Virus record (IMG/VR): IMGVR_UViG_3300044785_000009
Span: 1 to 54,792 of that record
Length of the DNA stretch: 54,792 nt
Reading direction: 5' to 3' (one strand)
Source: a virus
Taxonomy: Duplodnaviria; Caudoviricetes
A program made the position numbers and the translations under genes. Positions 12,523 through 37,531 of this stretch are shown in pieces. A model generated the notes under the pieces. The model ran no database searches. It was not told where the DNA came from and was given only the letters and a program-made list of their open reading frames with translations. Within the stretch, counting starts at the first letter, position 1, and every line of letters starts with the position of its first letter.

Positions 12523-12702
12523 TCAGTACCCTACGAATACCATAGCTAATGCGCCGAGCAGGATAAGATCGAGGAGACCCCAAAGGCCAAAGAAGATAAA
12601 GAGTACACTCACTACGTGATACTCGATCTTATCTCCAAGCTTCCTATCGTCAGCTCTTCTCTGTGGTATTGCAAAGTCGATTATGTCGAGTGGTTTATTC
12701 AT
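12523..12702 (-). CDS. 59-aa membrane protein (not in the ORF track)
   Basis: MNKPLDIIDFAIPQRRADDRKLGDKIEYHVVSVLFIFFGLWGLLDLILLGALAMVFVGY. ATGA overlap with the upstream gene. Confidence 0.55.
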   Translation of the reverse strand: MNKPLDIIDFAIPQRRADDRKLGDKIEYHVVSVLFIFFGLWGLLDLILLGALAMVFVGY

Positions 12703-13376
12703 GACGGTGATGAGCTCCCGCCGAGACGATTTGTAAGGGGTCCATCAGGTGGTACTTCAACGTCAGTGGGGCGGAACGGATCGAAGAGGTGCTTCTCTCC
12801 GAGGGAGAACGAGCGGTACCTCAGCAAGTGCCTTGTGGCATCCATCGCGTGCCCCTGTCCAGGAACCCACAGGTGCAATTGCTTGATTCGATTATCAGTC
12901 CAGAATCCCTTACCGAGACCAGCACCGGACGGAATAAGCTTGACGTAGTCTCGATCAACCGCCCAGTATTTTAAGGCGCCAATAACTTCGGCGGCTGTAT
13001 AGTCGATCTTGTCTCGATAGCGCTCGGTCATCCGATAGTCGAAGGTCTCGTAGCCAATGTGCACTCTCGGCTTCGCAATGAATGGTTGAACTGTAGTGGT
13101 CCAGAGCTGCAGCTGCTTAAACATTGCCTTGAGAAAGTAGCCGTCAGTGCAAGGCATCTGTGCCCGTTCCCAGGTCATAGCCTTATCGATCCCGGAATCG
13201 ATAGTCCAGAACGCTGCCATGCCCGTAGTACCACCTGGGTCTAACCAGATGATCAGCTTCGGCGCTACGTATGTACCGCCTAGGTTCATATTAGTCATGT
13301 AGCTGTCTCTCCACTTCTTCTTGAACGCGACGAGATCACCCATCACGTCGTGGTTAGGATCGTCCCAAGGTAGCAT
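12699..13376 (-). CDS. RuvC-like Holliday junction resolvase
   Basis: WLDPGGTTG, GYETF and HAMDA motifs of the RNase H/RuvC fold. Confidence 0.7.
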   Translation of the reverse strand: MLPWDDPNHDVMGDLVAFKKKWRDSYMTNMNLGGTYVAPKLIIWLDPGGTTGMAAFWTIDSGIDKAMTWERAQMPCTDGYFLKAMFKQLQLWTTTVQPFIAKPRVHIGYETFDYRMTERYRDKIDYTAAEVIGALKYWAVDRDYVKLIPSGAGLGKGFWTDNRIKQLHLWVPGQGHAMDATRHLLRYRSFSLGEKHLFDPFRPTDVEVPPDGPLTNRLGGSSSPS

Positions 13377-13545: not shown

Positions 13546-13866
13546 CTAGAGGTTCTCTATGACTTCTAGCCTCTTGACTAGTTCGTCTCGTAGCGCTGTG
13601 AGCTCGTCGAGTCTAGCTTGGACGAGTGCGAGCTTGCGCTGTAGGGAAGTACGGCCGCGTAGGCAGACGATGATGTTGTCAGGCTCAAGGTTGGTCTTGT
13701 CACCATCGGAGAAGGTAACATACTCGTCAGAGCGAAGCTTTCGTCCGAGCTTCTCTTCGGCTACGAGGCGTTGGACGAGTATCCAACCTTCTTCCACTTT
13801 GACGTACTGGTAACCGTTTGGAGCTATTCGGCTCGTTCCGATATCGGATGTTGTTCCTCTTGGCAT
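13546..13866 (-). CDS. degenerate HNH-like protein with C-terminal coiled coil
   Basis: GY..V....W..V(Q)RLV.E..LGR.L...E.V(TF).DGDK.N...N follows the HNH pattern, but its His residues are replaced. Confidence 0.6.
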   Translation of the reverse strand: MPRGTTSDIGTSRIAPNGYQYVKVEEGWILVQRLVAEEKLGRKLRSDEYVTFSDGDKTNLEPDNIIVCLRGRTSLQRKLALVQARLDELTALRDELVKRLEVIENL

Positions 13867-13947: not shown

Positions 13948-16332
13948 CTATAAATCACCCCAGTTCTTTCCGATGGATAGATCTACGGGCCAGGGAACAT
14001 AGTCAGTGAACTTGCTGCCTTCCTCGGCCATGACCGAAGAGAGTATCTCCCCGACTTCGGTGGCCTGTACTTCCTTGCACTCGACAACCAGAGCGTCGTG
14101 AATTGTAAGCCGGATAAATCCCAAACCACGAAGCATTGGTCGCACGCGGATAAGTGCGGATAGACAAATATCGGACGCAGTAGATTGTGGCAGATAGGAC
14201 AAGGCTTCATTCATCACATCCTTCTTGTTCTGTTCAGTAATCAACCAGAACCTACGGCGGCGACCAAATGGTGACACAAGAGGATTGCCGCTCATTACTT
14301 GAGCCCTGACCATATTCTGCCATGCCATGACTTCAGGAAACAACCCTAGGAACTCTCGGTACTGTCGCTCGCCATCAGTCGCGGACAGACCGTATTCTTG
14401 TGCAATACTCCACGACTCTCGTCCATAAGCGATGCCGTAGAAGAATGCCTTCGTTCGAATGTACTCTTCCTTGCCCCAGCCTTCGCCGTAGAGTTGATCC
14501 GACAACTCGTTAAAGAACTTGTATCCTGGCGTCTGATTGCTGAGGATATCCCGAAGATAACTATCTTGGGCTAGCGTAGCCATGACACGAGCTTCAGCGT
14601 TAGCATAGTCACATTGGATTAGTACGTTGTCAGGATGTGTGACACTAAACTGTCGTCGGATCTCCTTATCACGCACAATGTTTTGAAGATTCGGATTTCG
14701 ACTCGCCAGACGTCCTGAAGTTGTACCGTGAAGAAGGTAAGTCGTGTAAATACGTCCACGGTACATTCGCTTCCGGATGCCAGCAATGTATGTACTATAG
14801 AGCTTGTGCTGTCGTCGATATTTGAGCATAGCTCCAATAAATCGTCGGCAGGCACTCCCTTCGTGCACTCTTCCGAGCAGCGCTGTGAGTGTCTCTTCAT
14901 TCGTAGACTGGACTCTGACATTCTGACTCTCCAGGTAGGCCTTGACCTGCATCGGCGAACGAGGATTGATTCCAGTCATCGGCACATCGAGATGACCTGT
15001 TGAGCCGATAACAACGTCTGCGATCTCCTGCTCGATCACTTCTAGGCGAGCGAGGTACTCACCCTCCAGCTTGAGCATATACTCCTTGTCGATAGCGATA
15101 CCATTCAGCTCGAGGAACATAAGCTGGTTAGCAGCCTTGACAAGGAAGTCGTGAACATGACGAACACCCTCACGCTCCATACTGGCAGTGAACAACTCCC
15201 ACAAATCCCACGTGCACACAACATCGTATGCATTGTACTTGTATAGGATAGGCCGCGGGATGTTCGCGTACGATCCTTTCTTCGGAATGTACTTCTTGAT
15301 GTCGTCATCGTACTTCGGAGCGCCTAGCTTCTCTACAGCCAGGACCTTAAGGCCGTGACCTCCAGGCCGCTCATCGAGTACGTAGCTGGCAAGCATTGTG
15401 TCACCCCAGAGCTCGAGGGTTCCGAGGGTTGGGAAAAGTCCGGCAAGATCAAATTTGCCGTTGTGTCCGATGAGTTGCTTGGATCGGAGGAGTTTCCGGA
15501 GAGCATTGACCACTGCTGGGAAGGTAAGTGCACTTTCACCCAGAACCACTGCTCGTCCTCTTGCGTAAGCAATTCCCACGCATAGAAGAGAATAGTTGTT
15601 CGGATGGTCAAACCCGACGTCTTTATCAAAACCGACTTCAATGTCAATAACGAGAGGTCCCTCCAACTCTCCTAGTTCATCAATAATTCGGAGCGCTTGA
15701 TCAGGATCGTCAAATGCTCGCCAGATAGGTTCACTCCAAGGCTCACGGTTACTCTCCTTCAGCTTTCCGATGTCAGATACGAGGGCCGGAAATGCATCTG
15801 CATTCCGGAGACAGTACGCTGGATGCCATGTCGGAATGACAGTCGCAGTATCTGCAAGGCCAGCGTTCGTAAGGAACCTTGCAGGTCGCTTGGGTGGACC
15901 GATACGAAGCGTGGTAATTGTACCTGGATCATCAACGAGTAAGGTCGATGCGGTGCCACCAAGTGCAATGATACTAGTAGACTCATTGGCGACGAGTTCG
16001 TTTGTGAGACGTCCACGACAAGCAACCACTGCAGCCTTAGGAGGAGTTGCGTTATCCGCAGGACGGCATAGACAAACATTGGTCAACATCACCTCCGATC
16101 GAGATACCCCATGATGTTTGAGCACGGTCGTAAGCAACTTGCCGGAAGGACCTGTAAAGGGAACACCCTTCGTCACCTCGTAGAATCCAGGAGCCTCTCC
16201 GACCAAAGCTATTCTACGTTCGCCATTCGACGCAGGCGGCCCCTGTGGGTGTTTAGTAGGCACCATCCCCTCGTCTCGCAGCGGGCAATGGCTACAGTCA
16301 GCACCTAAGTGCTCAGCTTTCATGTAGCCCAC
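13948..16332 (-). CDS. polA: family A DNA polymerase with N-terminal family-4 uracil-DNA glycosylase domain and 3'-5' exonuclease
   Basis: UDG: CSHC, GEAPG, PFTGPSG, N.CLCRP, HPAY. Exonuclease: DIE, HNGKFD, YNAYD. Polymerase: TTSGRLAS.NPNLQN, DYANAE, RTKAFFYGIAYG, IHDAL. Confidence 0.93.
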   Translation of the reverse strand: MGYMKAEHLGADCSHCPLRDEGMVPTKHPQGPPASNGERRIALVGEAPGFYEVTKGVPFTGPSGKLLTTVLKHHGVSRSEVMLTNVCLCRPADNATPPKAAVVACRGRLTNELVANESTSIIALGGTASTLLVDDPGTITTLRIGPPKRPARFLTNAGLADTATVIPTWHPAYCLRNADAFPALVSDIGKLKESNREPWSEPIWRAFDDPDQALRIIDELGELEGPLVIDIEVGFDKDVGFDHPNNYSLLCVGIAYARGRAVVLGESALTFPAVVNALRKLLRSKQLIGHNGKFDLAGLFPTLGTLELWGDTMLASYVLDERPGGHGLKVLAVEKLGAPKYDDDIKKYIPKKGSYANIPRPILYKYNAYDVVCTWDLWELFTASMEREGVRHVHDFLVKAANQLMFLELNGIAIDKEYMLKLEGEYLARLEVIEQEIADVVIGSTGHLDVPMTGINPRSPMQVKAYLESQNVRVQSTNEETLTALLGRVHEGSACRRFIGAMLKYRRQHKLYSTYIAGIRKRMYRGRIYTTYLLHGTTSGRLASRNPNLQNIVRDKEIRRQFSVTHPDNVLIQCDYANAEARVMATLAQDSYLRDILSNQTPGYKFFNELSDQLYGEGWGKEEYIRTKAFFYGIAYGRESWSIAQEYGLSATDGERQYREFLGLFPEVMAWQNMVRAQVMSGNPLVSPFGRRRRFWLITEQNKKDVMNEALSYLPQSTASDICLSALIRVRPMLRGLGFIRLTIHDALVVECKEVQATEVGEILSSVMAEEGSKFTDYVPWPVDLSIGKNWGDL

Positions 16333-17069
16333 TCCTTGAACACCTTGATGTTATAGTCGAGCAGCTTTATGCTGACAGGCGAAGGCCGCTGGAAGTAGTC
16401 GAAACGACGTGGCTCACGAAACTCCGAAGCGTGTAGAGCTGTCATCGTCAGATCAGCTTCGGCCATCTTGTACGGCTGTGCTGAGTCCATCGATCGAACT
16501 TCAGAAGGGAATTCTACGTCGAGCATTTCGGTCTGGAAGAGCTTGTGTAGCCCCAGCAGGTGGATCTTGAAACGGTTTCTGTGTCGCTTCAGGATAGCCT
16601 GGGCTACTTCCGACCTAATTGTGTCATGACGCTTGGTGATGAGGATCTTCGGAATGCCGATCGTAGTGATAGCAGGTAGCTGACTGAACTGTCGAATGAG
16701 ATACATCACTTCATCGAAGTCGACACCCTGAGCAACCGCCATGATGTTGTAGTCGTGTGACTCTGGCCAGTCAGTGAGGAAGTCCATCGTGCGTGTGAGG
16801 GTAGCTGCAGCATCGCCGAGAACGTCAGGTGCGACGATCTCATGCACCTGCATGTCCTTAGCCGTCTGCATGAGTCGGTTGTTGCTGATCAGGTTGCCCT
16901 CGGCGCAGCCATTATCGAGGATGAGATAGTCGCCACGCTTGCGAGCGTCTACGTAGGTCCGTTGGTACTCTTGGTTCCGTCGAAGCGATAAGAATGGGAG
17001 GCAGAGGTGGATGTCACTCTGTAGCGCGGTGGCTTCTAGGCCCCTCGGTGGAATCAGTGCGGCTTTCAT
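16320..17069 (-). CDS. divergent TGT/DpdA-like TIM-barrel (putative 7-deazaguanine transglycosylase)
   Basis: LILDNG..E, APDVLGD, MAVAQG, IHLLG and SMDS follow the motif order of the tRNA-guanine transglycosylase fold. Adjacent to preQ0 genes. Confidence 0.6.
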   Translation of the reverse strand: MKAALIPPRGLEATALQSDIHLCLPFLSLRRNQEYQRTYVDARKRGDYLILDNGCAEGNLISNNRLMQTAKDMQVHEIVAPDVLGDAAATLTRTMDFLTDWPESHDYNIMAVAQGVDFDEVMYLIRQFSQLPAITTIGIPKILITKRHDTIRSEVAQAILKRHRNRFKIHLLGLHKLFQTEMLDVEFPSEVRSMDSAQPYKMAEADLTMTALHASEFREPRRFDYFQRPSPVSIKLLDYNIKVFKEWAT

Positions 17070-17175
17070 TCTTCTCCCTGCTCAAGTTCCATTTGATGGC
17101 AATTAGGAGGGCTACGAGAGTAATTCCGTTGCCCATAACGATAGCGCTAACCAGTAAGATATACTGCTGCCACAT
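17014..17175 (-). CDS. 53-aa single-TM protein (not in the ORF track)
   Basis: MWQQYILLVSAIVMGNGITLVALLIAIKWNLSREK... TAATG coupling with the upstream gene. Confidence 0.45.
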   Translation of the reverse strand: MWQQYILLVSAIVMGNGITLVALLIAIKWNLSREKNESRTDSTEGPRSHRATE

Positions 17176-17486
17176 TAGTTCCCCAGTCCCATAAATCCTG
17201 CAGCGTTCATGAATGGTGTACTTGTAGGAGCACCTTCACCATCAGCGATGACTTCTCGGATACGCTCCTGAAGTAGTCGTAGCTTGATAAAGGTGTACCT
17301 AGCATAGTTCGCTAGGTCGACGATCTCGTCTAGAGCTTCCTCCATCGTATCGACAATAAGGAAGTTGCCAGGACCATACTTCTCGGCGCCTACTAGATGA
17401 CGCTCTTCGCACGCAGCGTCGAACTCTTCGCTGAAGCCGACGATGATCTCGGCAATGCCCTTCTCTGCTTCTTCTGTCTCTGCCAT
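17175..17486 (-). CDS. small all-alpha NTP-pyrophosphatase (MazG-superfamily)-like protein
   Basis: R...G.EKYG followed by the acidic helix EEALDEIVDLANY. Confidence 0.55.
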   Translation of the reverse strand: MAETEEAEKGIAEIIVGFSEEFDAACEERHLVGAEKYGPGNFLIVDTMEEALDEIVDLANYARYTFIKLRLLQERIREVIADGEGAPTSTPFMNAAGFMGLGN

Positions 17487-18046
17487 TAGTGACTCCCGTT
17501 GAGTCTGCTGAGGAATTCGGCCTTAGCTGTACGAGTATGATCGTTAAACACGCCAGACATCGAGGCTGTGTACGTCTTCGTGCCCGAACTCTTGACGCCC
17601 CGAATCGACATGCACATGTGTTCGGCTTCGAGGACGACGGCAAGTCCTCGAGGTACTAGTCCTTCCTCGAGGAAGTCGGCGACCTGCTTCGTCAGTCGCT
17701 CTTGCAGCTGCAGACCGTGAGCGAAGTGTTGTACGACCCTCGCCAACTTGCTTAGGCCAACGAGTAGCTCTCCTGGAACGTAGCCGATGTGAGCGACTCC
17801 GAAGAAGGGAATGACGTGATGGTTACAGAGCGAGACGAATTGAATGTCTCGCTCGATGATCATCTCGTCGGTTCCATCGTTGTTGAAGACCTTCCACTTG
17901 ATTGGTGGAGGTGTCGTAAGCTCCTGCAACATCTTGACGAAGCGCGTAGGAGTATCTTCACCGTGCTGATCGTGAATGTCCAGGCCAGCTGCTAGTCGTA
18001 GCAACGTACTAGCAGCTGCGACAGCTTCACGTTCGTCAGGTGTCAC
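17486..18046 (-). CDS. folE: GTP cyclohydrolase I
   Basis: TP.R, SLCNHHVIPFFG..HIGY.P, GLSKLAR, QLQERLT, HMCM..RG. Confidence 0.95.
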   Translation of the reverse strand: MTPDEREAVAAASTLLRLAAGLDIHDQHGEDTPTRFVKMLQELTTPPPIKWKVFNNDGTDEMIIERDIQFVSLCNHHVIPFFGVAHIGYVPGELLVGLSKLARVVQHFAHGLQLQERLTKQVADFLEEGLVPRGLAVVLEAEHMCMSIRGVKSSGTKTYTASMSGVFNDHTRTAKAEFLSRLNGSH

Positions 18047-18378
18047 TGCTGGCTCCTCGGGTGATCAGTGGGAAGTGGCTTGAGAGCAGCCTCTTCGACG
18101 TTCTCGCGAGGAATGACCATCTTGCGGACCGTTCTACCAGTAGCATCCTTGACGTGAATCGCGACGAACTGATCCCAGCGGAAGGGTACGAGCTTCTTGC
18201 CACCGAGACGAGCATGTCCCGTACCGGTTGACCGTGTCAGGTTGAACTTCTTGTTGCGGAGCGTCGTACGGTTCGGAATGCGTTGCGGCTTGAACTTCTG
18301 CTCACGCAGCTCCGAAGCAATTGACTTATGTTCAAGCTCGGCGTTGAGTGCGATCTGAGCACTTAGTCTGTTGTCCAT
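18043..18378 (-). CDS. basic hypothetical protein within the preQ0 cluster
   Basis: Start MDNRLSAQ coupled to the queE stop by TAATG. Its stop overlaps the folE start. Confidence 0.6.
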   Translation of the reverse strand: MDNRLSAQIALNAELEHKSIASELREQKFKPQRIPNRTTLRNKKFNLTRSTGTGHARLGGKKLVPFRWDQFVAIHVKDATGRTVRKMVIPRENVEEAALKPLPTDHPRSQQ

Positions 18379-19130
18379 TACTTGTCCTTGTCGTCGCCCC
18401 AGAGGAGCACGTGCGAACGGAAAGTGACGCCATAGCCACGACAAATGGCCCTGTCGGCGAACAGCTGCGCAGTTGCGATGTTCTTCTCGGTCTTAGACCC
18501 TTCCGGCATAATCATGACTCGCCGTCGAGGAATGTGGCAATCGTTTACGATCAGGTCGATCTCGTCGAAGTCAGGGCCTAGTGTTTCAGGCGTGACCACG
18601 AACTTGAACCATGCTTTGCCTGTGCCGTTCAAGAGGCGAAGTACTTCAGGACGGTACCTCATCTCCTTTCGGTTGCCGCTCGACTCGAGCTTCGGCGAAA
18701 CGTTGTACTGAGTAACTACACGATCGAACTCGTACGTAGGTGCGATTGTTCCAGCCGTTTCGATGTGAATCTCGTTACTCCAATTGCGAAGAGCCCTACC
18801 GAGGTGCGTTAAATCCACCTGTTGAATCATTGGCTCACCACCAGAGATCACGACGATGGTTGGGTACTCCTTGTAGTTCCAGAGTTCGTCGATTTTCTTC
18901 AGAACAGTATCTAAATCCATCTCCTTTAGACCGTATGCCGGATCGTATCGATCGTACTGGATGCCGCTCTGGGTCTTGGCTGCACGCTCAGGAGTGTCGG
19001 CCCAGGTGTAGGCCGTATCACACCAGGTGCACGACAGATTGCAGTTGTACGTACGAACAAAGACGCAGTGCCTCCCAGCTGCTGCGCCCTCGCCCTGGAT
19101 AGTAGGACCAAAGATCTGACTGATCTTCAT
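18378..19130 (-). CDS. queE: 7-carboxy-7-deazaguanine synthase (radical SAM)
   Basis: IFGPTIQGEG, CNLSCTWCDT (CxxxCxxC), ISGGEP, IETAG, VSPKL. Confidence 0.95.
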   Translation of the reverse strand: MKISQIFGPTIQGEGAAAGRHCVFVRTYNCNLSCTWCDTAYTWADTPERAAKTQSGIQYDRYDPAYGLKEMDLDTVLKKIDELWNYKEYPTIVVISGGEPMIQQVDLTHLGRALRNWSNEIHIETAGTIAPTYEFDRVVTQYNVSPKLESSGNRKEMRYRPEVLRLLNGTGKAWFKFVVTPETLGPDFDEIDLIVNDCHIPRRRVMIMPEGSKTEKNIATAQLFADRAICRGYGVTFRSHVLLWGDDKDK

Positions 19131-19612
19131 GGCAGGATGTACTCCGCTCCGTTAGTCCCCGTCTCTTGGATACTTACTAGTACCTCATTGATAGCGCCAC
19201 TGATGTTCATGAACGTTTCGTACATCTCGTCACAGATCCACTTGGCGAGATTCTCAGTCGTTGGATCTCCCGACCAGACCTGTAAGCCAGGCAGGCGTGA
19301 GTAGATAACATCTGCCGCGCCAAGCTTCGAGAGCCCCGGCCGTGCCGACCACGTACGCAGCTGGTTAGCCCACACGTCGTCGACGTTGAGGTGCAGATGG
19401 TGATCGAGCTTCTCGTCGATGTATCCGCGGAAGATCTTTTTGACAGCTCCGAAGTCAAGACCGGCGAGGATGCCATTCTTGTCGAGACGACCTTCGATCG
19501 TCAGTTCGATCTGAAGTGAGTGTCCATGAATGTTCTGACATTTGCCGGGCAGCAAGCTGAGACGGTGTGCGATCTCAGCATTGTGTCGAACGAAGATCCT
19601 ACTTGTCGTCAC
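19127..19612 (-). CDS. queD: 6-carboxy-5,6,7,8-tetrahydropterin synthase
   Basis: AHRL, KCQNIHGHS, DF..VK, LDH, PTTEN, ET motifs. GTG start at 19612 with AAGGAGG RBS. Confidence 0.92.
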   Translation of the reverse strand: MTTSRIFVRHNAEIAHRLSLLPGKCQNIHGHSLQIELTIEGRLDKNGILAGLDFGAVKKIFRGYIDEKLDHHLHLNVDDVWANQLRTWSARPGLSKLGAADVIYSRLPGLQVWSGDPTTENLAKWICDEMYETFMNISGAINEVLVSIQETGTNGAEYILP

Positions 19613-20048
19613 TAGATGTTGCCTCCTTGTGAGCATAAGAGGCCTCGCCGGCTGCGAGTGAAACGTCCTCGGCCGCATCCATAGTCTCTTGGTCGACCTC
19701 GTCCTTCTCTTCCTGATCGATCGGATCGTTGAGGTGAGCATGCACAGCTGCGAGCTTATTCTCGATCATCTGAATGCTGTCCGCTTCGAGATTCAGTGTC
19801 TCGATCGGATCAGTGAGAGGATCTGGCTTGACGGCGACCGTCTCGATATAGTGGACACCGGCAGGAATGAAATGAGCGTACTTCACGCCGTCGCGGTAGA
19901 TGCAGAGGAACGCACCTTCGATGTTCCAGCCGTCGAACGTGGTGAGCGATATGAGTGGAACTACGTCGTCAGCGTATAGCTTGACCTCGTACTTCACGGG
20001 GTTAGGCATTGTGAGTTCCTCTGAACTGCCCAAGAATATTTCAGCCAT
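19599..20048 (-). CDS. acidic hypothetical protein between queC and queD
   Basis: ORF overlaps both neighbours in operon fashion. Confidence 0.65.
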   Translation of the reverse strand: MAEIFLGSSEELTMPNPVKYEVKLYADDVVPLISLTTFDGWNIEGAFLCIYRDGVKYAHFIPAGVHYIETVAVKPDPLTDPIETLNLEADSIQMIENKLAAVHAHLNDPIDQEEKDEVDQETMDAAEDVSLAAGEASYAHKEATSSDDK

Positions 20049-20911
20049 TAGTTGTTCAACTCTCTCTGCGCGATATCCTGCCGTTGCGCTTCTGCAACAA
20101 CGACCTTCCAGTACTCGGTGTCGTCGTAGACAGTCAGGTCGCAGATCAAGGGTCGTCTTGCGGATGTTACGTCGTACTCCGTACAGATGATGTCATACGC
20201 ACCATTGATTGCCTCGAGCCGCTCGACACAAGTGCCGCAGCGACCGCAGTGATTCTCGCCGCCCTTATAGCAACTCCACGTCATGTGAAGTGGTACTCCG
20301 AGGACGAACGCACGATAGGCGATGTCCATCTTTGAGTGATGCAGATATGGTGCCTTGATGTACTTCATCAGCAGAGTACCCTCATTCTGCTCGGGAATCG
20401 GGCCGAAGCCTTCATTGCCGAGTACAACAGCGCCATTGGCTGCAGCGATGAAGTGTGGACGACAATCAGGGTAGACCACGTGATCACCTGCGTGGACGGC
20501 TGTTGCGATCCCGTCGAAGCCCCGATTCACAGCAACACCAGCAGCGATCGACAGCATGATCATGTTGCGGTTTGGAACGACCGTGAGCTTCATGTTGTCT
20601 TCGGCGTAGTGACCTTCAGGTACCTCGATCTCCTGACGTGCCTGCGCGTCAGGACCGTCCGAGGTCATAGCACTAGTAAGGGCCGAGTTGCTGATTAGCT
20701 TCGCCAGACCACTCAGGTCGACGACGTCGAACCGAAGACCAAGCTGAGACGCCATTGCACGGGCGAAGACGAGTTCCTTCTTGTGTCGCTGTCCGTAGTC
20801 GAACGAGATGATCTCGAGGTCATAGCCTTGACTGCACAAGTCGTAGACCATCGTCGTACTATCGAGGCCACCACTAACTACTGCTACTACTTTTGGCATT
20901 GTCATTAACAA
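20048..20911 (-). CDS. queC: 7-cyano-7-deazaguanine synthase
   Basis: SGGLDS, FDYGQRH.KE, VPNRN, YPDCR, TWSCY, HCGRCGTC.ER. Confidence 0.96.
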   Translation of the reverse strand: MLMTMPKVVAVVSGGLDSTTMVYDLCSQGYDLEIISFDYGQRHKKELVFARAMASQLGLRFDVVDLSGLAKLISNSALTSAMTSDGPDAQARQEIEVPEGHYAEDNMKLTVVPNRNMIMLSIAAGVAVNRGFDGIATAVHAGDHVVYPDCRPHFIAAANGAVVLGNEGFGPIPEQNEGTLLMKYIKAPYLHHSKMDIAYRAFVLGVPLHMTWSCYKGGENHCGRCGTCVERLEAINGAYDIICTEYDVTSARRPLICDLTVYDDTEYWKVVVAEAQRQDIAQRELNN

Positions 20912-23138
20912 TCATCCTTCCGGCTACTTCGTATAGCCATGTTCGACCCATTCTTGTTGCCAGGATCAATCCTCGTTGTTCCATTGTCATAAAGAGGACC
21001 TCAGCTCCTCTTGCGTCAAGATGATACCACTGCATCAACTTCGACCTGGAAATACCTGGATGCTTCCTGATCGATTGGTAGATGCGTTGCAGCATGATCT
21101 CGTTGGCAGTACGTCCGATTCCATTGATGATCTCCAACGCATAACCACGCCAGCTCTCACCGTACTTGATCGCCAAGAGAAGATCTTCCAGTTCAACTAC
21201 GACGGTCTCCCCCTGCAATCTAGTCGCCGCAATAAGAACGGCAGCTTTGAGCATCGACTTAGCTAATCGGTCGTACATGGGTGTCATAATGTCTGGCTGA
21301 TCACTACTAACACCCGCATACAATAGAGTTGCTTCGAGCTGATTGTATCTTTGCCAAGCATCAGGAGTCAGTTTTGCCATGGTACGATCGTTGCTAACAC
21401 CGACTACCTTACCCTTGACAGTTATTTCCACATTGGATTGGTATCTACCGCTAAGCTCGGTGAGTTCTTCTATGAGGAGCTCACGGGCTTCTAAGTTCTC
21501 TTCAGTCGGAGGACCAAGCGGCTGGAGCTTACTTACATCTGACTCAGCTGTTATGAAGATGAATCGTGGTACAAAGCCCGAAGCTACATGTTCGAGTGTT
21601 AATAGGCTCTGCACACGCGTTTTGATTCCACCTCCGAAGATGAGTAGGCATGGTTCTTTTACTGTGACTGTTTCACGTTTTAGAACTCTCTTCATTGTTT
21701 TGCCGTCATACAGCTTAGTGAGAGCCTCGGCCATTCCTGCCATGTAATCTTTTCTGGACATAGCTTCAATCAGTCCAGAGAACTCATCTCGCAAGAACAT
21801 AGAAGGCTTTCCAGGACGTATCTCAAGGCTCTGCATAAGCCCTTCAAGAGATCCATCCGTAGCTAGTAGTACATCTGGATCAACCTCCTCGAGTATCTCC
21901 ATCGCTACGTCCATCGCTGTCGACTTTCTAGTTAAAGTCGTATCAGCTAGTAGCATGAACCAGAGGTTGGGCATGATCGTTCCGAACGATGTCGGTAATC
22001 GAATCGATCCAGCCAAGAGCGAGCTCAGGATCATGAAGGCTCCTGCTTGATGATATTGTACTGCTGCATCTCCAAGACTACTTGCCCATTTGATATACCT
22101 CTCGACGAATGTAAACGTTCCATTTAGTGATGCAAGTTCTGTATCACTGATTAACGGTACTACCTTCTCGGTTTCAGGTACAAGAATGTTGAGTTTTTCA
22201 ACCGTCGCAACGTACGCACGACATACTTCGTTCCAGAGCAGCTTAGGGTGTTTGTTATCACGTTTGTACTTGTTGCAAGCCGCATCGCTAGTAACTGTGA
22301 ATACTTCTTCTCGAGACATACCTGCCTCGAACAGCAGCATCTCTAGCTGCCAGAGAGGCTTACTCCAACCCCCATCACTAGTCGACTGATCAGGTGCAAC
22401 ACTGTGCAGACTAAAGGCGATCGAGTTGAGCGTCTTGCGGTATCGTTGCATAATATCGAGTGCTGATTCGGTAGGCAGAACTTGTGGCATCGGATCATGC
22501 GTACGTGTGTTGATTCGTGCTTCTCGGTACTCATTAAAGTCGTCAGGAGCATAGTAGGTTGTATGGACCTTTGTGATGTTTACGGTTAGGGGGATTGGAT
22601 ACTTAAAATTGAATGTGAGTGGTACCCGCAGTAGTTGTGTCAGATCCCAACCACTAGTATCCGCACCATCAGCTACGTGGTGATATGCGATATTAGCTGA
22701 GATTTGCTCTGCGACAGCAGGCTCTACTGGCCTCTCAAATACCCACAGGGCCTGCCATCTATCTGTTGACGTCTCAAGTAGTACTGTTGGTTCGACAAGA
22801 AGAAGTTCCGGCTTGCAAGTATCGAGATCTGCCCATGCGGAGGCACAGGTCTTGACGTTCTCTTTAGTTCTTGCACTCCTTGCACCAGGGAGTCGTTCTC
22901 TCGACTTCAAGAGTTGCGGGCAAAAGTAGGTATTACCCTTTGTTGCAACGCTTTCGATGTGCACTAACATACGAGTGAGTTCTTCTGGATATTGAAAGAA
23001 CTCTTCGGAGAACCTTCCGCTCTCGATCGCCTTGTGCGATATACAGACAAACCCGCTTGAGTTCGGTCCGAATACCAATTTGAAGAACGTGGATCGCTTC
23101 GAGCGTCGTTCTTCTGGCGTCAGAGACGGTGATGTCAT
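20874..23138 (-). CDS. primase (RepB/AEP-like) fused to a DUF3987-like helicase domain
   Basis: WADLD, ETS..RWQALW and LLRVP.T.N.KY in the N-terminus. RKSTA, DEFSG and SGFVPRF in the C-terminus. Confidence 0.8.
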   Translation of the reverse strand: MTSPSLTPEERRSKRSTFFKLVFGPNSSGFVCISHKAIESGRFSEEFFQYPEELTRMLVHIESVATKGNTYFCPQLLKSRERLPGARSARTKENVKTCASAWADLDTCKPELLLVEPTVLLETSTDRWQALWVFERPVEPAVAEQISANIAYHHVADGADTSGWDLTQLLRVPLTFNFKYPIPLTVNITKVHTTYYAPDDFNEYREARINTRTHDPMPQVLPTESALDIMQRYRKTLNSIAFSLHSVAPDQSTSDGGWSKPLWQLEMLLFEAGMSREEVFTVTSDAACNKYKRDNKHPKLLWNEVCRAYVATVEKLNILVPETEKVVPLISDTELASLNGTFTFVERYIKWASSLGDAAVQYHQAGAFMILSSLLAGSIRLPTSFGTIMPNLWFMLLADTTLTRKSTAMDVAMEILEEVDPDVLLATDGSLEGLMQSLEIRPGKPSMFLRDEFSGLIEAMSRKDYMAGMAEALTKLYDGKTMKRVLKRETVTVKEPCLLIFGGGIKTRVQSLLTLEHVASGFVPRFIFITAESDVSKLQPLGPPTEENLEARELLIEELTELSGRYQSNVEITVKGKVVGVSNDRTMAKLTPDAWQRYNQLEATLLYAGVSSDQPDIMTPMYDRLAKSMLKAAVLIAATRLQGETVVVELEDLLLAIKYGESWRGYALEIINGIGRTANEIMLQRIYQSIRKHPGISRSKLMQWYHLDARGAEVLFMTMEQRGLILATRMGRTWLYEVAGRMIVNDNAKSSSSS

Positions 23139-29016: not shown

Positions 29017-29534
29017 TTCTCTTCCTCCTTTCCGAAGTCGAAGATCACCCACCCATCTCCTTCAACCACCTGAGGTCCCTCAGCTGCTCGCTTCAGGAAG
29101 TTCTCGAGGTCATCATCGGGCATGGATGTGCATGTGCAGGGCGTGAGATCGTCGTACTTAATTTTGTACGCAGTCTCTTGCCCAAGACGAAACATCCGAA
29201 CACCGATCATGGCAGCTGATTTACCCAAGGCATCTGTTGCGTATTCGAACTGCGTATCTTCAGTGAGCTCGCCCGCGTTGCACAACGCCTGCATCTGTTC
29301 CTGAATAGTATCGACGCACTCCGATACGATCTCCACTAGCAGACGTCCGAGCCCTGCCGGTGGATGGTGCATATCTTGTATCCAGTCAGCTAGTCGCTCA
29401 CCATTGTCCTTCTGATCGACGTACAACTCGTACCAGGCGCGCTGTAATTGCTTGTACTCGATATACTGTGCCTTGTACATATCGTTTCGAGTTGCCACCC
29501 AAATCCCCTTAAGCCTAGCAAGACTGTCTAACAA
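29013..29534 (-). CDS. hypothetical protein (true start probably downstream of 29534)
   Basis: ORF coupled to the HNH gene. Confidence 0.6.
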   Translation of the reverse strand: MLDSLARLKGIWVATRNDMYKAQYIEYKQLQRAWYELYVDQKDNGERLADWIQDMHHPPAGLGRLLVEIVSECVDTIQEQMQALCNAGELTEDTQFEYATDALGKSAAMIGVRMFRLGQETAYKIKYDDLTPCTCTSMPDDDLENFLKRAAEGPQVVEGDGWVIFDFGKEEEK

Positions 29535-29546
29535 ACGTCTAACCCG

Positions 29547-29626
29547 CTTAGACCTCAGAGAGACAAAAGGAATATACTACCTGAGTACAAACACATAGCC
29601 TTTTGTCTCTCTAAAGTCTAACTAGT
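29547..29626. repeat. dispersed palindromic element, copy 3
   Basis: TTAGAC.AGAGAGACAAAAGG ... CCTTTTGTCTCTCT.GTCTAA inverted repeat. Confidence 0.8.
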
Positions 29627-29629
29627 TGG

Positions 29630-29983
29630 TCAGCGTCGAACTTCAGCCGTACCTTCGTCGCCCGTCTCAAGACGAACCTGCTCGTCGAGTTGGTCTTGCA
29701 CCTGCTTGACAAGGTCGGGACGGGCTGGAAACTCCTTAATGCGTTTCGTCTCAGGCTCCGGGATCGATCCATCAGGGTTCACCTGAATAATCCGACTAAC
29801 CTGAGTGTGCCATCGGCATCGAACGTTCTCGCAGATGTACACCTTAAGCACCGTACCAGGTTCGACACCGAACTTGCGAGATCCGTCCTTGTTACGGAGT
29901 GGAACAGGTGCCTCATGAGAGTACTTACTCGGTTGGAGGCACTTCGGACATCTACTTGCTTCTTCCAGTGTCGTCACTTCCAA
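29630..29983 (-). CDS. hypothetical Zn-ribbon protein
   Basis: CPKC...CENVRC. Confidence 0.65.
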   Translation of the reverse strand: MEVTTLEEASRCPKCLQPSKYSHEAPVPLRNKDGSRKFGVEPGTVLKVYICENVRCRWHTQVSRIIQVNPDGSIPEPETKRIKEFPARPDLVKQVQDQLDEQVRLETGDEGTAEVRR

Positions 29984-30438
29984 CTCCTATCCGGCATCAT
30001 CCTTGCCATGTACGCGCATAGTTCTTCCAACTTATTGACACGCTCGTGTAGATCCTTGATCTGCCCTGCCATTTGCTGGGTAGCATTCCCTCGACGCGCC
30101 CTCTTGGGTGTGAAGTCCTTCCAAGCGTCAAGCTCAGGTTCCTTCCAGAGCACCCATCTGCTCGTAGCGTTACCGCCACCACGTCGTATTTGTTCGATGC
30201 AGCCCATACCAATGAGTTGGTTCTTGAGCAAGGTGTAATAAGGAACACTCAACAGGAGCTTCTTGAACAAATTCGTTAAGTGCCCCTCATACACCATCAG
30301 GCCGGACTCTTTGTCAGGCGCAGAGTGCTTCTGCATCTCCCGGTAAACCCGCACAGCATGCTCGAACACTGCAGGCACAACAGTTAGGTCTACCCTCTGG
30401 TCTTCCGCAGGTTCAGCCATCCGACCGTCAATCGCCAT
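29974..30438 (-). CDS. hypothetical protein, possibly a winged-helix DNA-binding protein
   Basis: Helix-helix-wing-like segment (L...G.IEQIRRGGG...SRW.L) followed by a coiled coil. Confidence 0.55.
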   Translation of the reverse strand: MAIDGRMAEPAEDQRVDLTVVPAVFEHAVRVYREMQKHSAPDKESGLMVYEGHLTNLFKKLLLSVPYYTLLKNQLIGMGCIEQIRRGGGNATSRWVLWKEPELDAWKDFTPKRARRGNATQQMAGQIKDLHERVNKLEELCAYMARMMPDRSWK

Positions 30439-30439
30439 G

Positions 30440-30646
30440 TTAACCCCGTAGCTTCTGTTGTAGTGTCTTAAGAGCCGTGAGGTGATCCTGAGCGTCCGAG
30501 ACGACCTCCATGAACTCTTCGATCGTCTCAGGGGTCTGATCCGATTCGATGTGAATCTCCAAAACGCCCTCGGCGACGGTTATGGCGTCGTCAAGGGCAT
30601 CATCGAGCAGCTCTAGATCTTCGTCTGTCAGGTTGTACTTCAGCAT
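30440..30646 (-). CDS. small highly acidic protein
   Basis: AGGAGG RBS, directly below the promoter at 30666-30696. Confidence 0.65.
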   Translation of the reverse strand: MLKYNLTDEDLELLDDALDDAITVAEGVLEIHIESDQTPETIEEFMEVVSDAQDHLTALKTLQQKLRG

Positions 30647-30665
30647 GTGTTGCCTCCTATCTCTA

Positions 30666-30696
30666 ATTATACAGCAGACTACCTTATGGACTTCAA
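30666..30696 (-). promoter_or_regulatory. leftward promoter TTGAAG-N19-TATAAT
   Basis: Repeated promoter family. Confidence 0.7.
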
Positions 30697-30796
30697 CGGT
30701 GCTATTTAGATATCTATGTAACACACTGTTACACCCTACGAAGCCCCACAGGGCTGGACTAGTCTGCTGTCATTTCAAGATCCTTTAATGGCGCAA

Positions 30797-31024
30797 AAGA
30801 AAGGGGCCGACCTTGGTCGCTATGCACCGTCCTGCAGTACATAGATACCTCGACCGACCCCTTCCTCCTGGAAGCTGCGCCGTCAACCGCGCTTCCATGC
30901 GGACAGCACACACCTGCACCAGCCAGCTACTACAAGTGCGGCATCCTATCATTTGAAGCTTCGCACAGCTGACCTCAGTCGCTATCCGAATTTACGGTTT
31001 GCGGGTCTGCGAACCAGCTGTGCT
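30797..31024 (-). ncRNA. hairpin-rich non-coding segment ending in a terminator-like stem
   Basis: No ORF of 60 aa or more. Stems GCACAGCTG/CAGCTGTGC, GGAAGC/GCTTCC and AAGGGGYCG/CGRCCCCTT followed by a U-rich run on the minus strand. Confidence 0.5.
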
Positions 31025-31026
31025 CG

Positions 31027-31137
31027 TGGGGAGAGGAGGAATCGAACCTCCATGTCTGCAGCTCACCCTTAAGGGCCCATCCCCTGCAGTCGAGTCGCAC
31101 TCGCGCTTGTGCATTCGTTGCGACAACCAGACTCCCC
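31027..31137 (-). ncRNA. tRNA-like element A (111 nt)
   Basis: GGGGAG/CTCCCC acceptor, GGAGG-TTCGATT-CCTCC T arm. Middle replaced by two other stems. Confidence 0.65.
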
Positions 31138-31221
31138 TTGCACTGGCCTAACCCCTACCAGCATGTGCGTCCTTTAACGTGGTGACCACTCGCATAGGCT
31201 AACGCACTTCCCCACGCCGTA

Positions 31222-31551
31222 CTAGAGGAAGTCCACTTCCCTCGTCGGTTCATTGCCACTGGCAAGCCAGAGGATGAAGTCCTCCGTGGTGAAGCCGTCA
31301 CGATTGGTTGAACCGGTCGTGTACCACCGTCCGGCGACGTTCAAGGCCGCGTAGGCGTACACGATGTTCGAGCCGTTGAACTTCTTCTTGAACGTGCAGA
31401 CCGCACCCTCATGGTCGAAGGTGAAGAAGGCGTTCTCCAGATCTAGGACGATCCGCCGCTTCTCCTCGACGTCCCGCAGTGCCAGTCCGGCCGCCCGCTC
31501 CGCGCGGAAAGCCTCAATCGCCGGGTCGTGCTCTTCGTCATTCTCGTACAT
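31222..31551 (-). CDS. hypothetical protein
   Basis: AAGGAGG RBS before MYENDEE. Confidence 0.7.
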   Translation of the reverse strand: MYENDEEHDPAIEAFRAERAAGLALRDVEEKRRIVLDLENAFFTFDHEGAVCTFKKKFNGSNIVYAYAALNVAGRWYTTGSTNRDGFTTEDFILWLASGNEPTREVDFL

Positions 31552-31576
31552 TGCACCCTCCTTGACGTAACTTACG

Positions 31577-31716
31577 TGGACGGTCGAGGATTCGAACCTC
31601 GGTACTTCCAGGAACCACTCGCTGTGCTTTACGGTCGCCTCCTGCAGGGGAAGACGGTATGTCATCGTAAAGTCAGGAATAGCCTTGGAATCGCTCTACC
31701 ATTGAGCTAACCGCCC
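31577..31716 (-). ncRNA. tRNA-like element B (140 nt) with greatly extended anticodon arm and G3:U70
   Basis: GGGCGGT/ACCGTCC-A acceptor, GCTC-AATGGTA-GAGC D arm, CGAGG-TTCGAAT-CCTCG T arm. Confidence 0.8.
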
Positions 31717-31915
31717 GCGATGGGAAGCAAGGTGTTCCTGCTTCCCATCATCGCCGAGAGCCGTCCTAACCTGGCTTTGTCTCTCCCGACTTCTCCCCAC
31801 ATCTTTCCCCGGTGCTGTACGCACTCGAAGTCGTCATCGGCCGGTATAGCATGTGGTTTGCGTGAACTGGCTGCTTCGATGCTACGGCCTTGTTTCAGCC
31901 GACCAGCTCTCCTTG

Positions 31916-32437
31916 TTACTCCGCCTCAGTGACCGGGGTCTCGTCAGCGGTTCCCTCGGCCTCGGTCGTAGGCGTTGCCGCCTTCGCCGCTTCCTTGGCC
32001 GCGCGGGCCTCCTTCGAAGCCGTGACACGCGAGTTCTTCGCGTCCCACCACGCCAAACCCTCTTCGGGCTTGATGTACCACGCGTACCCATCCAGCTCGT
32101 GAATCGGGAAGGGGTTCTTCTTGCCGTCTCCGACGTTGTTCTTGACGTAGCTGTAGACCACCTGCGGCGGGACCGCCTTGCCGAGGTGAATGGACAGCAG
32201 CTTGGCGAACTCGACGGGCTTCACGAACCCATCGGGGGCCTTCGTGCGGGGTGTCGAAGTGGCCTTCGCCGGCTTCGACGCGTCGGCAGCGGTCTCCGGG
32301 GCGACCTCGTCGAGCTCGTCACTCGGCGTGTCCACGTCCAGGTTACTGTCGTCGTTGACCTCGAGGTCCAGATCCGTTTCCGGCTGGTCGGTCTCCACCA
32401 CAGAGGCGTCCTCGAAGGTCGGAGTGGTCTGCGTCAT
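31916..32437 (-). CDS. early protein with acidic N-terminus and putative DNA-binding core
   Basis: AAGGAG RBS, own promoter, strongly biased codons. Confidence 0.75.
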   Translation of the reverse strand: MTQTTPTFEDASVVETDQPETDLDLEVNDDSNLDVDTPSDELDEVAPETAADASKPAKATSTPRTKAPDGFVKPVEFAKLLSIHLGKAVPPQVVYSYVKNNVGDGKKNPFPIHELDGYAWYIKPEEGLAWWDAKNSRVTASKEARAAKEAAKAATPTTEAEGTADETPVTEAE

Positions 32438-32480
32438 TGTAGTCTCCTTGTCGTTGACGCTTTCCTTGCTTGCTACTTCA

Positions 32481-32511
32481 AGTATACGCTGGACACTCCA
32501 TTGGACTGCAA
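32481..32511 (-). promoter_or_regulatory. leftward promoter TTGCAG-N19-TATACT
   Basis: Repeated promoter family, with an A-rich UP-like tract upstream. Confidence 0.7.
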
Positions 32512-32551
32512 GCGGGATCTTGAAGTTTTTTATGGGGCTCTTTTTGTTACG

Positions 32552-32627
32552 CACGCCTGGAAGGATTCGAACCTTCACTTCCTGTTGCCCTCTGGTAAAG
32601 GCGGCTACCTAGCGGTAGCTCAGGCGC
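32552..32627 (-). ncRNA. tRNA-like element C (76 nt)
   Basis: GCGCCTG/CAGGCGT acceptor, GAAGG-TTCGAAT-CCTTC T arm, non-canonical D and anticodon hairpins. Confidence 0.65.
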
Positions 32628-32709
32628 TGTAATGCCTACTCGTCGTACGACGGCCGGTTCAAGCCATGACCGTCGTCGACGGTGGCCGTGCGTGCGTACT
32701 GCCCGACGG

Positions 32710-33030
32710 TCACCATCGGTGTGGCTCCGTACGCCCGTAGATGCGGTAGGATGCGCTCGGGTTGACGACCTTCATGTCCTGGTCGCCGACGGTCGCCGAC
32801 TCGATCGGCATGCCGCTGTCGTCGATGATCTGGTACGTCGTGACGTAAGTGGACTTGGCGGTTCCACTCGCAATGCCCGCCACGACGCTCTCCCAGCGAT
32901 CCTCATCGGGCTGCACCCGCAGCTCGACGAAGATCTCCTCGTTGGTCATCTGGCTGCCGTCCGCATTCTTCCAGGCGCTGATGTCGACGTCCTGGGTGGT
33001 ACGAACGGTGTGGTACACTCGCACCTTCAC
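32710..33030 (-). CDS. hypothetical protein
   Basis: AAGGAGG RBS, GTG start. Confidence 0.7.
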   Translation of the reverse strand: MKVRVYHTVRTTQDVDISAWKNADGSQMTNEEIFVELRVQPDEDRWESVVAGIASGTAKSTYVTTYQIIDDSGMPIESATVGDQDMKVVNPSASYRIYGRTEPHRW

Positions 33031-33057
33031 TGCTACCTCCTTGACGGTTTACTTACG

Positions 33058-33170
33058 TGGGAAAGTCGGGAATCGAACCCGATCTGCAACTTCGCAGCGC
33101 ATAACACCTGAGGAATCGGACAAGAAACTCTCGGTGTCTACGTGAGCGGCTCTCCATGAGCTTCTTTCCC
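33058..33170 (-). ncRNA. tRNA-like element D (113 nt) with extended anticodon arm
   Basis: GGGAAAG/CTTTCCC-A acceptor, GCTC-ATGGA-GAGC D arm, TCGGG-TTCGATT-CCCGA T arm. Confidence 0.78.
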
Positions 33171-33905: not shown

Positions 33906-33929
33906 TATATCCACCTCCTTACTAGTCCA

Positions 33930-37514: not shown

Positions 37515-37531
37515 GGGGGCTATTGATGGGG

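Follow-up and report, generated by a model that had tools for sequence, protein, structure and literature searches.

A predicted DpdA3-type 7-deazaguanine module with a co-inherited 103-aa partner in the replication block of an uncultured phage

The locus and its predicted guanine transglycosylase

The stretch analysed here, called the window, covers the whole of an IMG/VR virus record (IMGVR_UViG_3300044785_000009; 54,792 b), whose completeness CheckV estimates at 84%. Its genome is siphovirus-like and encodes terminase, portal, protease, major head, tape measure and tail genes. The replication block lies on the minus strand from 26 kb down to 12.7 kb and contains an exonuclease, a Sak4-like annealase, orf183, a primase, a chain of genes predicted to make and use the base preQ0, an HNH gene and orf225. 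This chain, the preQ0/DpdA3 chain, is the subject of this study. Its order on the minus strand is QueC, orf149, QueD, QueE, orf111, FolE, orf103, a gene for a protein related to tRNA-guanine transglycosylase (TGT), and a family-A DNA polymerase (PolA) fused to a uracil-DNA glycosylase (UDG) domain.

The open reading frames (ORFs) of the chain are closely coupled. Overlaps of 1 nt (TAATG) were found at QueC/orf149, QueE/orf111, FolE/orf103 and orf103/orf53, and overlaps of 4 nt (ATGA or GTGA) at QueD/QueE and orf111/FolE. The TGT-like gene and PolA also share a 4-nt ATGA overlap, provided that PolA begins at ATG 16323. The single break in the coupled chain is a 105-nt spacer between orf103 and the start of the TGT-like gene. 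The first-pass annotation of this DNA had described one chain of overlapping genes. The overlaps are real, and Pfam and PHROGs gave the gene identities, but the chain is not seamless, as the 105-nt gap is bridged by the doubtful orf53 alone.

The TGT-like gene (16320..17069, minus strand) encodes a predicted DpdA3-subfamily guanine transglycosylase of 249 aa with a minimal TGT-fold barrel. It lies in one operon with FolE, QueD, QueE and QueC, all within 4 kb. A 40-sequence metagenomic alignment of the protein was compared by hhalign with seven cultured-phage DpdA3 proteins (phiST, MA9V-3, BSP7, Youna2, StAshley, CP220 and immuto_2-6A), which gave a probability of 100% and an E value of 7.8e-42 over 247 columns. 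A tblastn search of 50,697 phage records with the window protein matched 13 records. These were phiST CGPG_00065 (Cellulophaga phage phiST and its relatives; 24.4% over 99% of the query, E 5e-9), the BSP7 group of six Bacillus phages (~33–34%, E 1e-12), Weizmannia phage Youna2 (28.5%) and Chryseobacterium phage MA9V-3. The BSP7 homologue, used as a query, bridged to CP220, immuto_2-6A and two Brevundimonas phages. In the available text of Cui/Hutinet et al. 2023 (PMC10516641), phiST CGPG_00065 is the founding DpdA3 member, and CP220 and immuto_2-6A carry the other named DpdA3 proteins.

Judged by these matches, the protein belongs to the published DpdA3 subfamily, and the family itself is not new. 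What is new here is an uncultured branch of DpdA3 and a new linked partner gene, orf103. Placement among the DpdA subfamilies by hidden Markov model (HMM) and structure, which the first-pass annotation had suggested as a check, was run and ended in DpdA3. The enzyme, called atypical there, is a divergent guanine transglycosylase as described, but the hhalign match shows that it is not of a novel type. The motifs LDNG..E, AQG and HLLG listed in the same annotation are present and occupy invariant or nearly invariant columns of the 40-sequence alignment.

The AlphaFold2 (AF2) model of the protein (pLDDT 96.9, pTM 0.92) is a TIM barrel of the TGT type. The top Foldseek matches were ArcTGT, bacterial TGT and human QTRT1 (best E 2.1e-6); these three types made up most of the matches listed, among which were also two D-psicose epimerase entries. 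VIA-align gave a Z score of 15.7 both to ArcTGT (1iq8_A) and to DpdA (7ui4_A); the fold alone is not decisive, because unrelated TIM barrels reach Z 12–15. Three aspartates, D52 (LDNG), D82 (APD) and D195 (RSMDS), are invariant in 40/40 sequences, and each stands where a predicted strand ends (strands 3, 4 and 8, respectively). At the corresponding strand ends, Salmonella (S. Montevideo) DpdA has D95 as general acid/base, D130 as base-recognising residue and D256 as nucleophile, according to the accessible part of PMC10164549. A low-confidence hhalign match (probability 22%, E 9e-4) pairs D52 and D82 with the GDSGAF and LDV aspartates in a classical phage DpdA. D195 follows the predicted strand 191–196 and was placed by strand order as the putative counterpart of D256.

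The protein is distant from the standard family models. Its local match to the NCBIfam DpdA model NF041059 (residues 77–205 against model positions 142–265) scored 16.9 bits at a cut-off of 200. Pfam PF01702 did not match the window protein and matched 3/40 relatives (best E 4.8e-6), and a search of PDB sequences with the DpdA3-like family profile found no TGT, its best match being a phosphofructokinase (E 0.57). The Zn site CXCX2CX22H is absent from the protein, which has 2 Cys only, neither of them conserved. The Ins8 insertion is also absent, as only 54 residues follow D195, among which R221, N240 and W247 are invariant. In bacterial DpdA, Ins8 has 128 residues and forms much of the DNA-binding surface (PMC10164549, available portion).

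Membership in DpdA4 was considered and rejected. The window protein scored 13.4 bits (E 0.061) with the DpdA4/DUF6610 model PF20314, below the cut-off of 27 bits; the two subfamilies were set apart here by HMM scores. Weak DUF6610 matches were obtained for 24/40 relatives (best E 8.6e-7). Since the DpdA3 proteins of BSP7 and CP220 match in a similarly weak manner, these matches reflect shared motifs and do not remove the protein from DpdA3. The maximum-likelihood tree (47 sequences) placed the metagenomic clade apart from the three cultured pairs. StAshley was nearest to the metagenomic clade, although its place is unsure because of its very long branch.

Conservation of the module and its 103-aa partner

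A DpdA3-like relative is encoded in 214 IMG/VR stretches, of which 80 loci were compared. Unless stated otherwise, locus counts are from tblastn with the window proteins, and the identity of the DpdA3-like protein ranged down to 29%. The DpdA3-like gene was found in 80/80 loci, PolA directly downstream of it in 78/80 and orf103 directly upstream in 74/80. FolE was detected in 73/80 loci, QueD in 63/80, QueC in 56/80 and the primase upstream of QueC in 55/80. QueE was detected in 44/80 loci by tblastn and in 55 by ORF clustering, so that it is undercounted by tblastn because of sequence divergence. Missing genes are partly due to contig ends, since many loci are incomplete. Across the 80 loci the gene order primase-QueC-QueD-QueE-FolE-orf103-DpdA3-PolA was that of the window, and a few close relatives swap QueE and QueD.

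The module also occurs in cultured phages in GenBank, namely Bacillus phages BSP7/BSP19/BSTP5-12, Weizmannia phage Youna2 and Brevundimonas phages StAshley/MaInes, for which DNA modification has not been reported; the Youna2 paper (PMC10468668) mentions neither queuosine, deazaguanine, restriction, QueC nor modification. Their DpdA3-like proteins are 28–34% identical to that of the window, and their PolA ~29% identical over 98–100% of the length. BSP7 and Youna2 have the same gene order as the window (primase-QueC-x-QueD-QueE-x-FolE-small ORFs-DpdA3-like-UDG/PolA). They differ in that a ~185-aa Walker-A protein occupies the slot of orf103, and both the Bacillus and the Weizmannia phages have an interrupted polymerase gene. 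StAshley has QueC-QueD-QueE-x-DpdA3-like-PolA, with FolE elsewhere in its genome. Among 185,579 species genomes, one DpdA3-like match was obtained (36% identity), on a contig (L142) of a metagenome-assembled genome (MAG) that carries the label Pedobacter. The contig probably comes from a phage and was binned with the MAG, and no host can be inferred from one species-genome contig only.

The gene directly upstream of the spacer, orf103 (17175..17486, minus strand), encodes an acidic (isoelectric point, pI, 4.2) helical-hairpin protein of 103 aa. All 54/54 loci retrieved through orf103 (49 new ones by HMM and 5 from the 80) carry a DpdA3-like gene just downstream; this linkage holds for near relatives only, because the retrieval patterns were strict. 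By its linkage and position, orf103 appears as the tightest, obligatory companion of this DpdA3 clade. An orf103 profile search of 1.8 billion representatives returned 402 clusters at E<=1e-3, and tblastn against the 50,697 phage records found no match in cultured phages. The protein matched nothing in Pfam, PHROGs and NCBIfam, and a Pfam scan of 47 of the 402 relatives found no informative family.

The first-pass annotation had called the 103-aa protein MazG-like and a candidate dNTP-removing enzyme, and neither idea found support. MazG-type enzymes are four-helix bundles with a metal site of the form ExxE...ExxD. The nucleoside triphosphate (NTP) pyrophosphatase models PF03819, PF01503, PF08761 and PF18909 matched 0/38 members of the orf103 family and 0/47 of the more distant ones; when PF18909 was run on five phage records, it matched nothing, not even in the controls. 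The AF2 model of orf103 is a two-helix hairpin (pLDDT 70). Its matches to the PDB in Foldseek were unspecific, VIA returned generic helical hairpins only (Z<=6.6), and the comparison with the PF18909 structure entry gave a TM score of 0.35, under the threshold. Between profiles, hhalign gave a probability of 0.9% to the MazG of the lineage and 0.1% to the phiST MazG, and nothing to BSP7_055 and BSP7_056. The only stretch shared with MazG is E-[IV]-[VI]-D-x-x-x-Y, which is not significant at that probability of 0.9%. An identity as MazG or NTP pyrophosphatase thus has no support from HMM, profile or fold matches. Residues G33, Y37, G38, E54, D57, N60 and Y61 of orf103 are invariant, which includes an E54-x-x-D57 pair, and R29, H30 and K36 are nearly invariant.

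The true MazG of the lineage is a separate gene, missing from the window. It forms cluster c8 and occupies the slot between FolE and orf103 (e.g. L066:7332-7712). PF03819 matched 25/32 distinct members at E<=0.01, 9/32 of them over the 22-bit cut-off, and the cluster is homologous to the phiST MazG (hhalign probability 79%, E 1.6e-5). Co-occurrence was counted in 70 loci with enough upstream sequence, where 54 had both MazG and orf103, 12 had orf103 only and 4 had MazG only, so that MazG was present in 58/70. As the two genes co-occur in 54/70 loci, orf103 is not a replacement of MazG. A six-frame hmmsearch of the window found no MazG (best E 1.1), and the closest relatives are also without it. 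Three loci (L008, L097 and L109) have a weaker MazG-like match (E 1.6e-10) downstream of the polymerase and not in the FolE-orf103 slot. Our best guess is that orf103 could assist the exchange step as an accessory factor, or that it could be a nucleotide hydrolase of the all-alpha type that has diverged very far.

The preQ0 genes, the small ORFs and the polymerase

FolE, QueD, QueE and QueC turn GTP into the free base preQ0. FolE (GTP cyclohydrolase I, 17486..18046, minus strand), which takes the first step from GTP, matched Pfam GTP_cyclohydroI with 180.7 bits and NCBIfam NF006826 with 181.7 bits (cut-off 162). QueD (6-carboxytetrahydropterin synthase, 19127..~19636, minus strand) matched Pfam PTPS with 81.1 bits and the QueD-like PHROG 2389 (E 7.9e-25). 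The gene could start at ATG 19636, at GTG 19612 or at one of several ATGs further upstream, as far as 19741, and the translation shows the C-x3-HGH motif. QueE (7-carboxy-7-deazaguanine synthase, a radical SAM enzyme; 18378..19130, minus strand) matched the QueE-like PHROG 2076 (E 3.5e-54) and has CxxxCxxC in its translation. Elsewhere it stayed below curated cut-offs (NCBIfam QueE models, E 3e-26; Pfam Radical_SAM, 28.4 bits with a cut-off of 29.5). QueC (7-cyano-7-deazaguanine synthase, 287 aa; 20048..20911, minus strand) matched Pfam QueC with 179.2 bits and NCBIfam TIGR00364 with 165.4 bits (cut-off 150.3). Alternative starts are ATG 20905 or 20899, and the protein has no Gat domain. Its C-terminus extends ~50 aa beyond the Pfam domain, and this extension has no family match.

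On these matches in Pfam, PHROGs and NCBIfam, all four preQ0 genes are present in one operon and apparently intact, as had been proposed for this locus. Pfam and NCBIfam scans of the window found no QueF, ArcS, Gat-QueC or other Gat domain, DpdL-like second QueD, DUF3109 protein or formyltransferase. Since QueF, ArcS and Gat genes are lacking, dPreQ0 is the default product, in agreement with the earlier prediction.

Two small ORFs lie between these genes. The acidic orf149 (pI 4.2; 19599..20048, minus strand) is in the slot between QueC and QueD, TAATG-coupled to QueC, and the basic orf111 (pI 11; 18043..18378, minus strand) is in the slot between QueE and FolE. orf149 matched nothing in Pfam, PHROGs and NCBIfam, and a protein-atlas search gave no usable match. 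orf111 had no family match, and its profile resembled neither the MazG cluster nor orf103. In jackhmmer searches of all proteins of the cassettes and of the neighbours in cultured phages, orf149, orf111 and orf53 retrieved their own small clusters only. Both slots are variable and hold unrelated small ORFs in other members; orf149 was detected in 8/80 and orf111 in 10/80 related loci, the nearest relatives only. The two ORFs had been suggested to tailor the base further. Such a role is unlikely for both, because they are confined to the closest relatives and match no family.

The cassettes of some relatives hold extra genes, which are absent from the window: a DUF6884 protein with a 290-aa partner (4–5 loci), a NUDIX hydrolase and a DJ-1/PfpI-like protein (L037:4380-4946, L085:4222-5094, L047:6165-6590 and L072:4631-5284). 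It is possible that the DUF6884 pair, the NUDIX and the DJ-1/PfpI-like proteins are better tailoring candidates in those relatives, or that they serve nucleotide handling.

The polymerase (13948..16332, minus strand; 794 aa) is a family-A enzyme with a UDG domain at its N-terminus and a 3'-5' exonuclease domain. Pfam UDG (PF03167) matched residues 36–179 with 87.2 bits, and DNA_pol_A (PF00476) matched residues 418–793 with 188.7 bits. Its start is likely ATG 16323, in the ATGA overlap with the stop of the DpdA3-like gene. That a UDG-fused polymerase follows the TGT-like gene directly, as first described, agrees with these domains and with the abutment seen across the related loci. The fusion is kept in relatives, where the UDG-domain motifs GEAPG and HPA were present in 57/63 polymerases. 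Motif C of the polymerase is HDA instead of the usual HDE. As 49 of the 63 related polymerases have HDA and 5 have HDS, HDA is a trait of the lineage and not an error. The UDG-fused PolA enzymes of SP-15/YerA41-like phages, whose DNA is modified, excise dU ahead of the fork according to the accessible text of Missoury et al., NAR 2026 (PMC13697223). They share with the window enzyme the UDG domain on a replicative PolA; they differ in being large, with extra insertions, and in belonging to thymidine-hypermodified phages. No deazaguanine link is drawn in the accessible text of that paper, where 7-deazaguanine appears in the reference list only.

Entry of the base and the surrounding genes

Starting from the observed gene identities, family placement, synteny and linkage, we propose that the block carries a DpdA3-type 7-deazaguanine DNA modification in which the base is exchanged on the phage DNA, with a probability of about 0.5. 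The activity, the substrate, the base and the extent of replacement are those that we infer. FolE, QueD, QueE and QueC would supply preQ0. The DpdA3-like enzyme would swap guanine for preQ0, or for the precursor ADG, by double displacement as in TGT and bacterial DpdA. It would act on phage DNA at the fork or shortly behind it, and a single operon with coupled translation would yield the enzyme along with the primase and the UDG-polymerase. If the three analysed DpdA3 phages are a guide, most or all G may be replaced, which would give dPreQ0-DNA that resists G-dependent restriction. In those three phages, CP220, phiST and immuto_2-6A, G is completely modified, and the published view of DpdA insertion is post-replicative (PMC10516641, as far as its text is available).

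The gene content of the window is consistent with exchange on DNA. No kinase, dGTPase, ribonucleotide reductase, phosphoribosyltransferase or NTPase was found among 51 proteins with PHROGs (0/51) or among further ORFs with Pfam (0/42 and 0/21), and the only Walker A in a gene frame of the window is that of Sak4. Since the window encodes no kinase, dGTPase, ribonucleotide reductase or phosphoribosyltransferase, preQ0 synthesis, DpdA3 and orf103 must suffice. Direct exchange on DNA is the simplest reading, because the cassette without MazG and kinase persists in a sub-lineage.

Several points weigh against exchange on DNA. The DpdA3-like protein has no Zn site and neither Ins1 nor Ins8, the DNA-binding surface of bacterial DpdA, and it is near-neutral (pI 6.7). 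Tests of DpdA3 in E. coli were unsuccessful, no DpdA3 has been demonstrated on DNA, and the ADG nucleoside is cited as present in the cytoplasm of CP220-infected cells (all in the available text of PMC10516641). Complete replacement of G is more easily reached before replication. MazG belongs to the cassette in 58/70 relatives, and other DpdA3 phages flank the gene with P-loop kinase-like proteins and NTP pyrophosphatases. Besides, dPreQ0 and dADG cannot be told apart from sequence.

These points lead to the route through the nucleotide pool that the first-pass annotation had favoured. Here the DpdA3-like enzyme would swap the base on dGMP, dGTP or dG, the product would be phosphorylated to the triphosphate, and the adjacent polymerase would incorporate it. 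The MazG of the relatives would remove dGTP, and orf103 could be a second, divergent pyrophosphatase or a specificity factor. We regard this route as possible but rather unlikely. The 100% replacement of G in DpdA3 phages speaks for it, as does the bare barrel without the nucleic-acid-binding insertions and the Zn site of TGT/DpdA. The direct abutment of DpdA3 on the polymerase in 78/80 loci and the presence of MazG in most relatives, usually in the FolE-orf103 slot, point the same way. Family-A polymerases accept 7-deaza-dGTP. A fold match to 9ntn (by its entry title a Cap10-CdnD complex) hints at partners other than nucleic acids.

The neighbours of DpdA3 in cultured phages give further support to the pool route. 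In six cultured DpdA3 phages from distant groups, a P-loop kinase-like gene adjoins DpdA3 or lies within three genes of it. These are CGPG_00066 in phiST (AAA_18), a gene in MA9V-3 (AAA_18/33), gp203 in immuto (AAA_28), gp055 (HD+AAA_33) upstream and gp057 (AAA_28) downstream in CP220, and BSP7_056 and its Youna2 counterpart, which adjoin DpdA3 and have Walker A at residue 9. Genes of NTP-pyrophosphatase folds adjoin DpdA3 in phiST (MazG) and immuto (PRA-PH), and StAshley and immuto also encode phosphoribosyltransferases. The words kinase and phosphoribosyl are absent from the main text of PMC10516641, in so far as it was available. However, kinase, phosphoribosyltransferase and MazG neighbours could equally well serve preQ0 synthesis by supplying GTP or by salvaging guanine, and a mycobacteriophage with classical DpdA also has an 'adenylate kinase' next to FolE.

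In the window itself the pool route finds little to build on. The locus lacks MazG, as do 12/70 relatives, no kinase was found anywhere in the window by PHROGs, Pfam and Walker A, and orf103 has no detectable similarity to MazG. We know of no TGT-superfamily enzyme that acts on mononucleotides. A literature search found no paper that proposes or tests nucleotide-level DpdA3, and the published view, as noted above, is post-replicative insertion. The idea of entry through the nucleotide pool thus gained comparative support from kinase-like and NTP-pyrophosphatase neighbours in other DpdA3 phages, but not from the window, which lacks both MazG and a kinase. The window argues slightly against the pool route, for which it makes the weakest case and not the strongest. 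A broader conjecture is that DpdA3 enzymes in general exchange the base of dGMP or dGTP for a dedicated adjacent polymerase, with orf103 as a new component (a substrate-presenting subunit or an unrecognised pyrophosphatase). We consider this conjecture doubtful. If true, nucleotide-level exchange by DpdA3 would be the first pathway of pre-replicative purine C7 replacement.

It is improbable, but in keeping with a pI of 4.2, a small helical hairpin and no enzyme family, that orf103 stands outside the modification chemistry as an acidic DNA mimic or as a protein that blocks a host defence directed at 7-deazaguanine DNA. It would then stay beside the DpdA3 gene solely because modified DNA always calls for it. 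Its coexistence with a bona fide MazG in 54/70 loci would fit such a role, whereas the invariant E54, D57, N60, Y61 and Y37 with the near-invariant R29, H30 and K36 seem to resemble a ligand or metal site. It is very improbable that the genes form an auxiliary metabolic module for host queuosine/tRNA modification or folate/pterin metabolism with a tRNA-acting barrel or a non-catalytic TGT relative, for although PHROGs annotate FolE, QueD, QueE and QueC as auxiliary metabolic genes and enzyme activity is predicted only, the DpdA3-like gene lies between primase (55/80) and PolA (78/80) in related loci, the barrel lacks the tRNA-binding insertions and the Zn subdomain, and the phages of the cultured homologues carry the base in DNA and not in tRNA (available text of PMC10516641).

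Like the cultured DpdA3 phages, the window has a TGT-like enzyme of ~250–265 aa class that is homologous over its full length, with FolE, QueD and QueE nearby (plus QueC in immuto), and phiST and immuto also have a polymerase gene near DpdA3. It differs from them in its separate tree branch, in a full preQ0 set without QueF, DpdL and DpdN, in the lack of MazG and of an adjacent P-loop kinase-like gene, and in the extra 103-aa partner, and it is known from sequence alone. With bacterial DpdA/DpdB and phage DpdA1/DpdA2 (7UI4) the enzyme shares the TIM barrel (rmsd 3.2 over 223 residues at 17% identity for the VIA match given above). Invariant aspartates at apparently equivalent strand ends and preQ0 as the likely base are shared with bacterial DpdA; unlike it, the window enzyme lacks the Zn site and the Ins8 four-helix bundle, is ~160 residues shorter and has no DpdB/ParB-like ATPase partner (PMC10164549, available part). 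Classical DpdA modifies at most 30% of G, according to the available text of PMC10516641.

The module can be likened to another system by analogy only. The PurZ/MazZ/DatZ system of cyanophage S-2L reportedly achieves complete base replacement before replication. The points that recall S-2L are that one base would be replaced completely, that most relatives have an NTP pyrophosphatase in their cassettes and that the genes are linked to the polymerase; unlike S-2L, there is no evidence here of a nucleotide-level enzyme, and the window has neither pyrophosphatase nor kinase.

Phages whose DNA contains 7-deazaguanine are shielded from many restriction enzymes. Complete replacement of G is the mark of DpdA3 phages. 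The window adds a large lineage of uncultured soil and water phages to the DpdA3 family and identifies orf103 as a strictly co-inherited partner. With preQ0 genes, DpdA3 and the 103-aa protein, without MazG and kinase, its cassette is the smallest seen in the lineage. As the module is also found in culturable Bacillus, Weizmannia and Brevundimonas phages, whether exchange occurs on DNA or on nucleotides can be tested directly at the bench.

The genes around the chain complete the conserved block. The primase (20874..23138, minus strand; DUF3987/RepB-primase-like) matched the DNA primase PHROG 10514 (E 1.1e-92) and Pfam DUF3987 (72 bits); it is the upstream neighbour of the chain and the beginning of the conserved replication/modification block. 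Downstream of the polymerase, the HNH endonuclease gene (13546-13866, minus strand; HNH_3, E 5.9e-5) and the gene of the 225-aa protein orf225 (12699-13376, minus strand; PHROG 1981) are part of the same block, because they are conserved in 60/80 and 54/80 related loci. Within the chain, orf53 (17014..17175, minus strand) is a doubtful hydrophobic ORF of 53 aa that overlaps the start of the DpdA3-like gene by 56 nt and has a counterpart in just 1/80 related loci (L021). It may encode a small protein of the membrane, or it may have arisen by chance. Outside the block, positions 29500-40400 of the window hold dense short ORFs on both strands, without family matches except for a weak phage zinc-finger match at 35109-35636 (minus strand), and their strand assignment is uncertain. 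The composition skew suggests minus-strand coding as far as ~40 kb.

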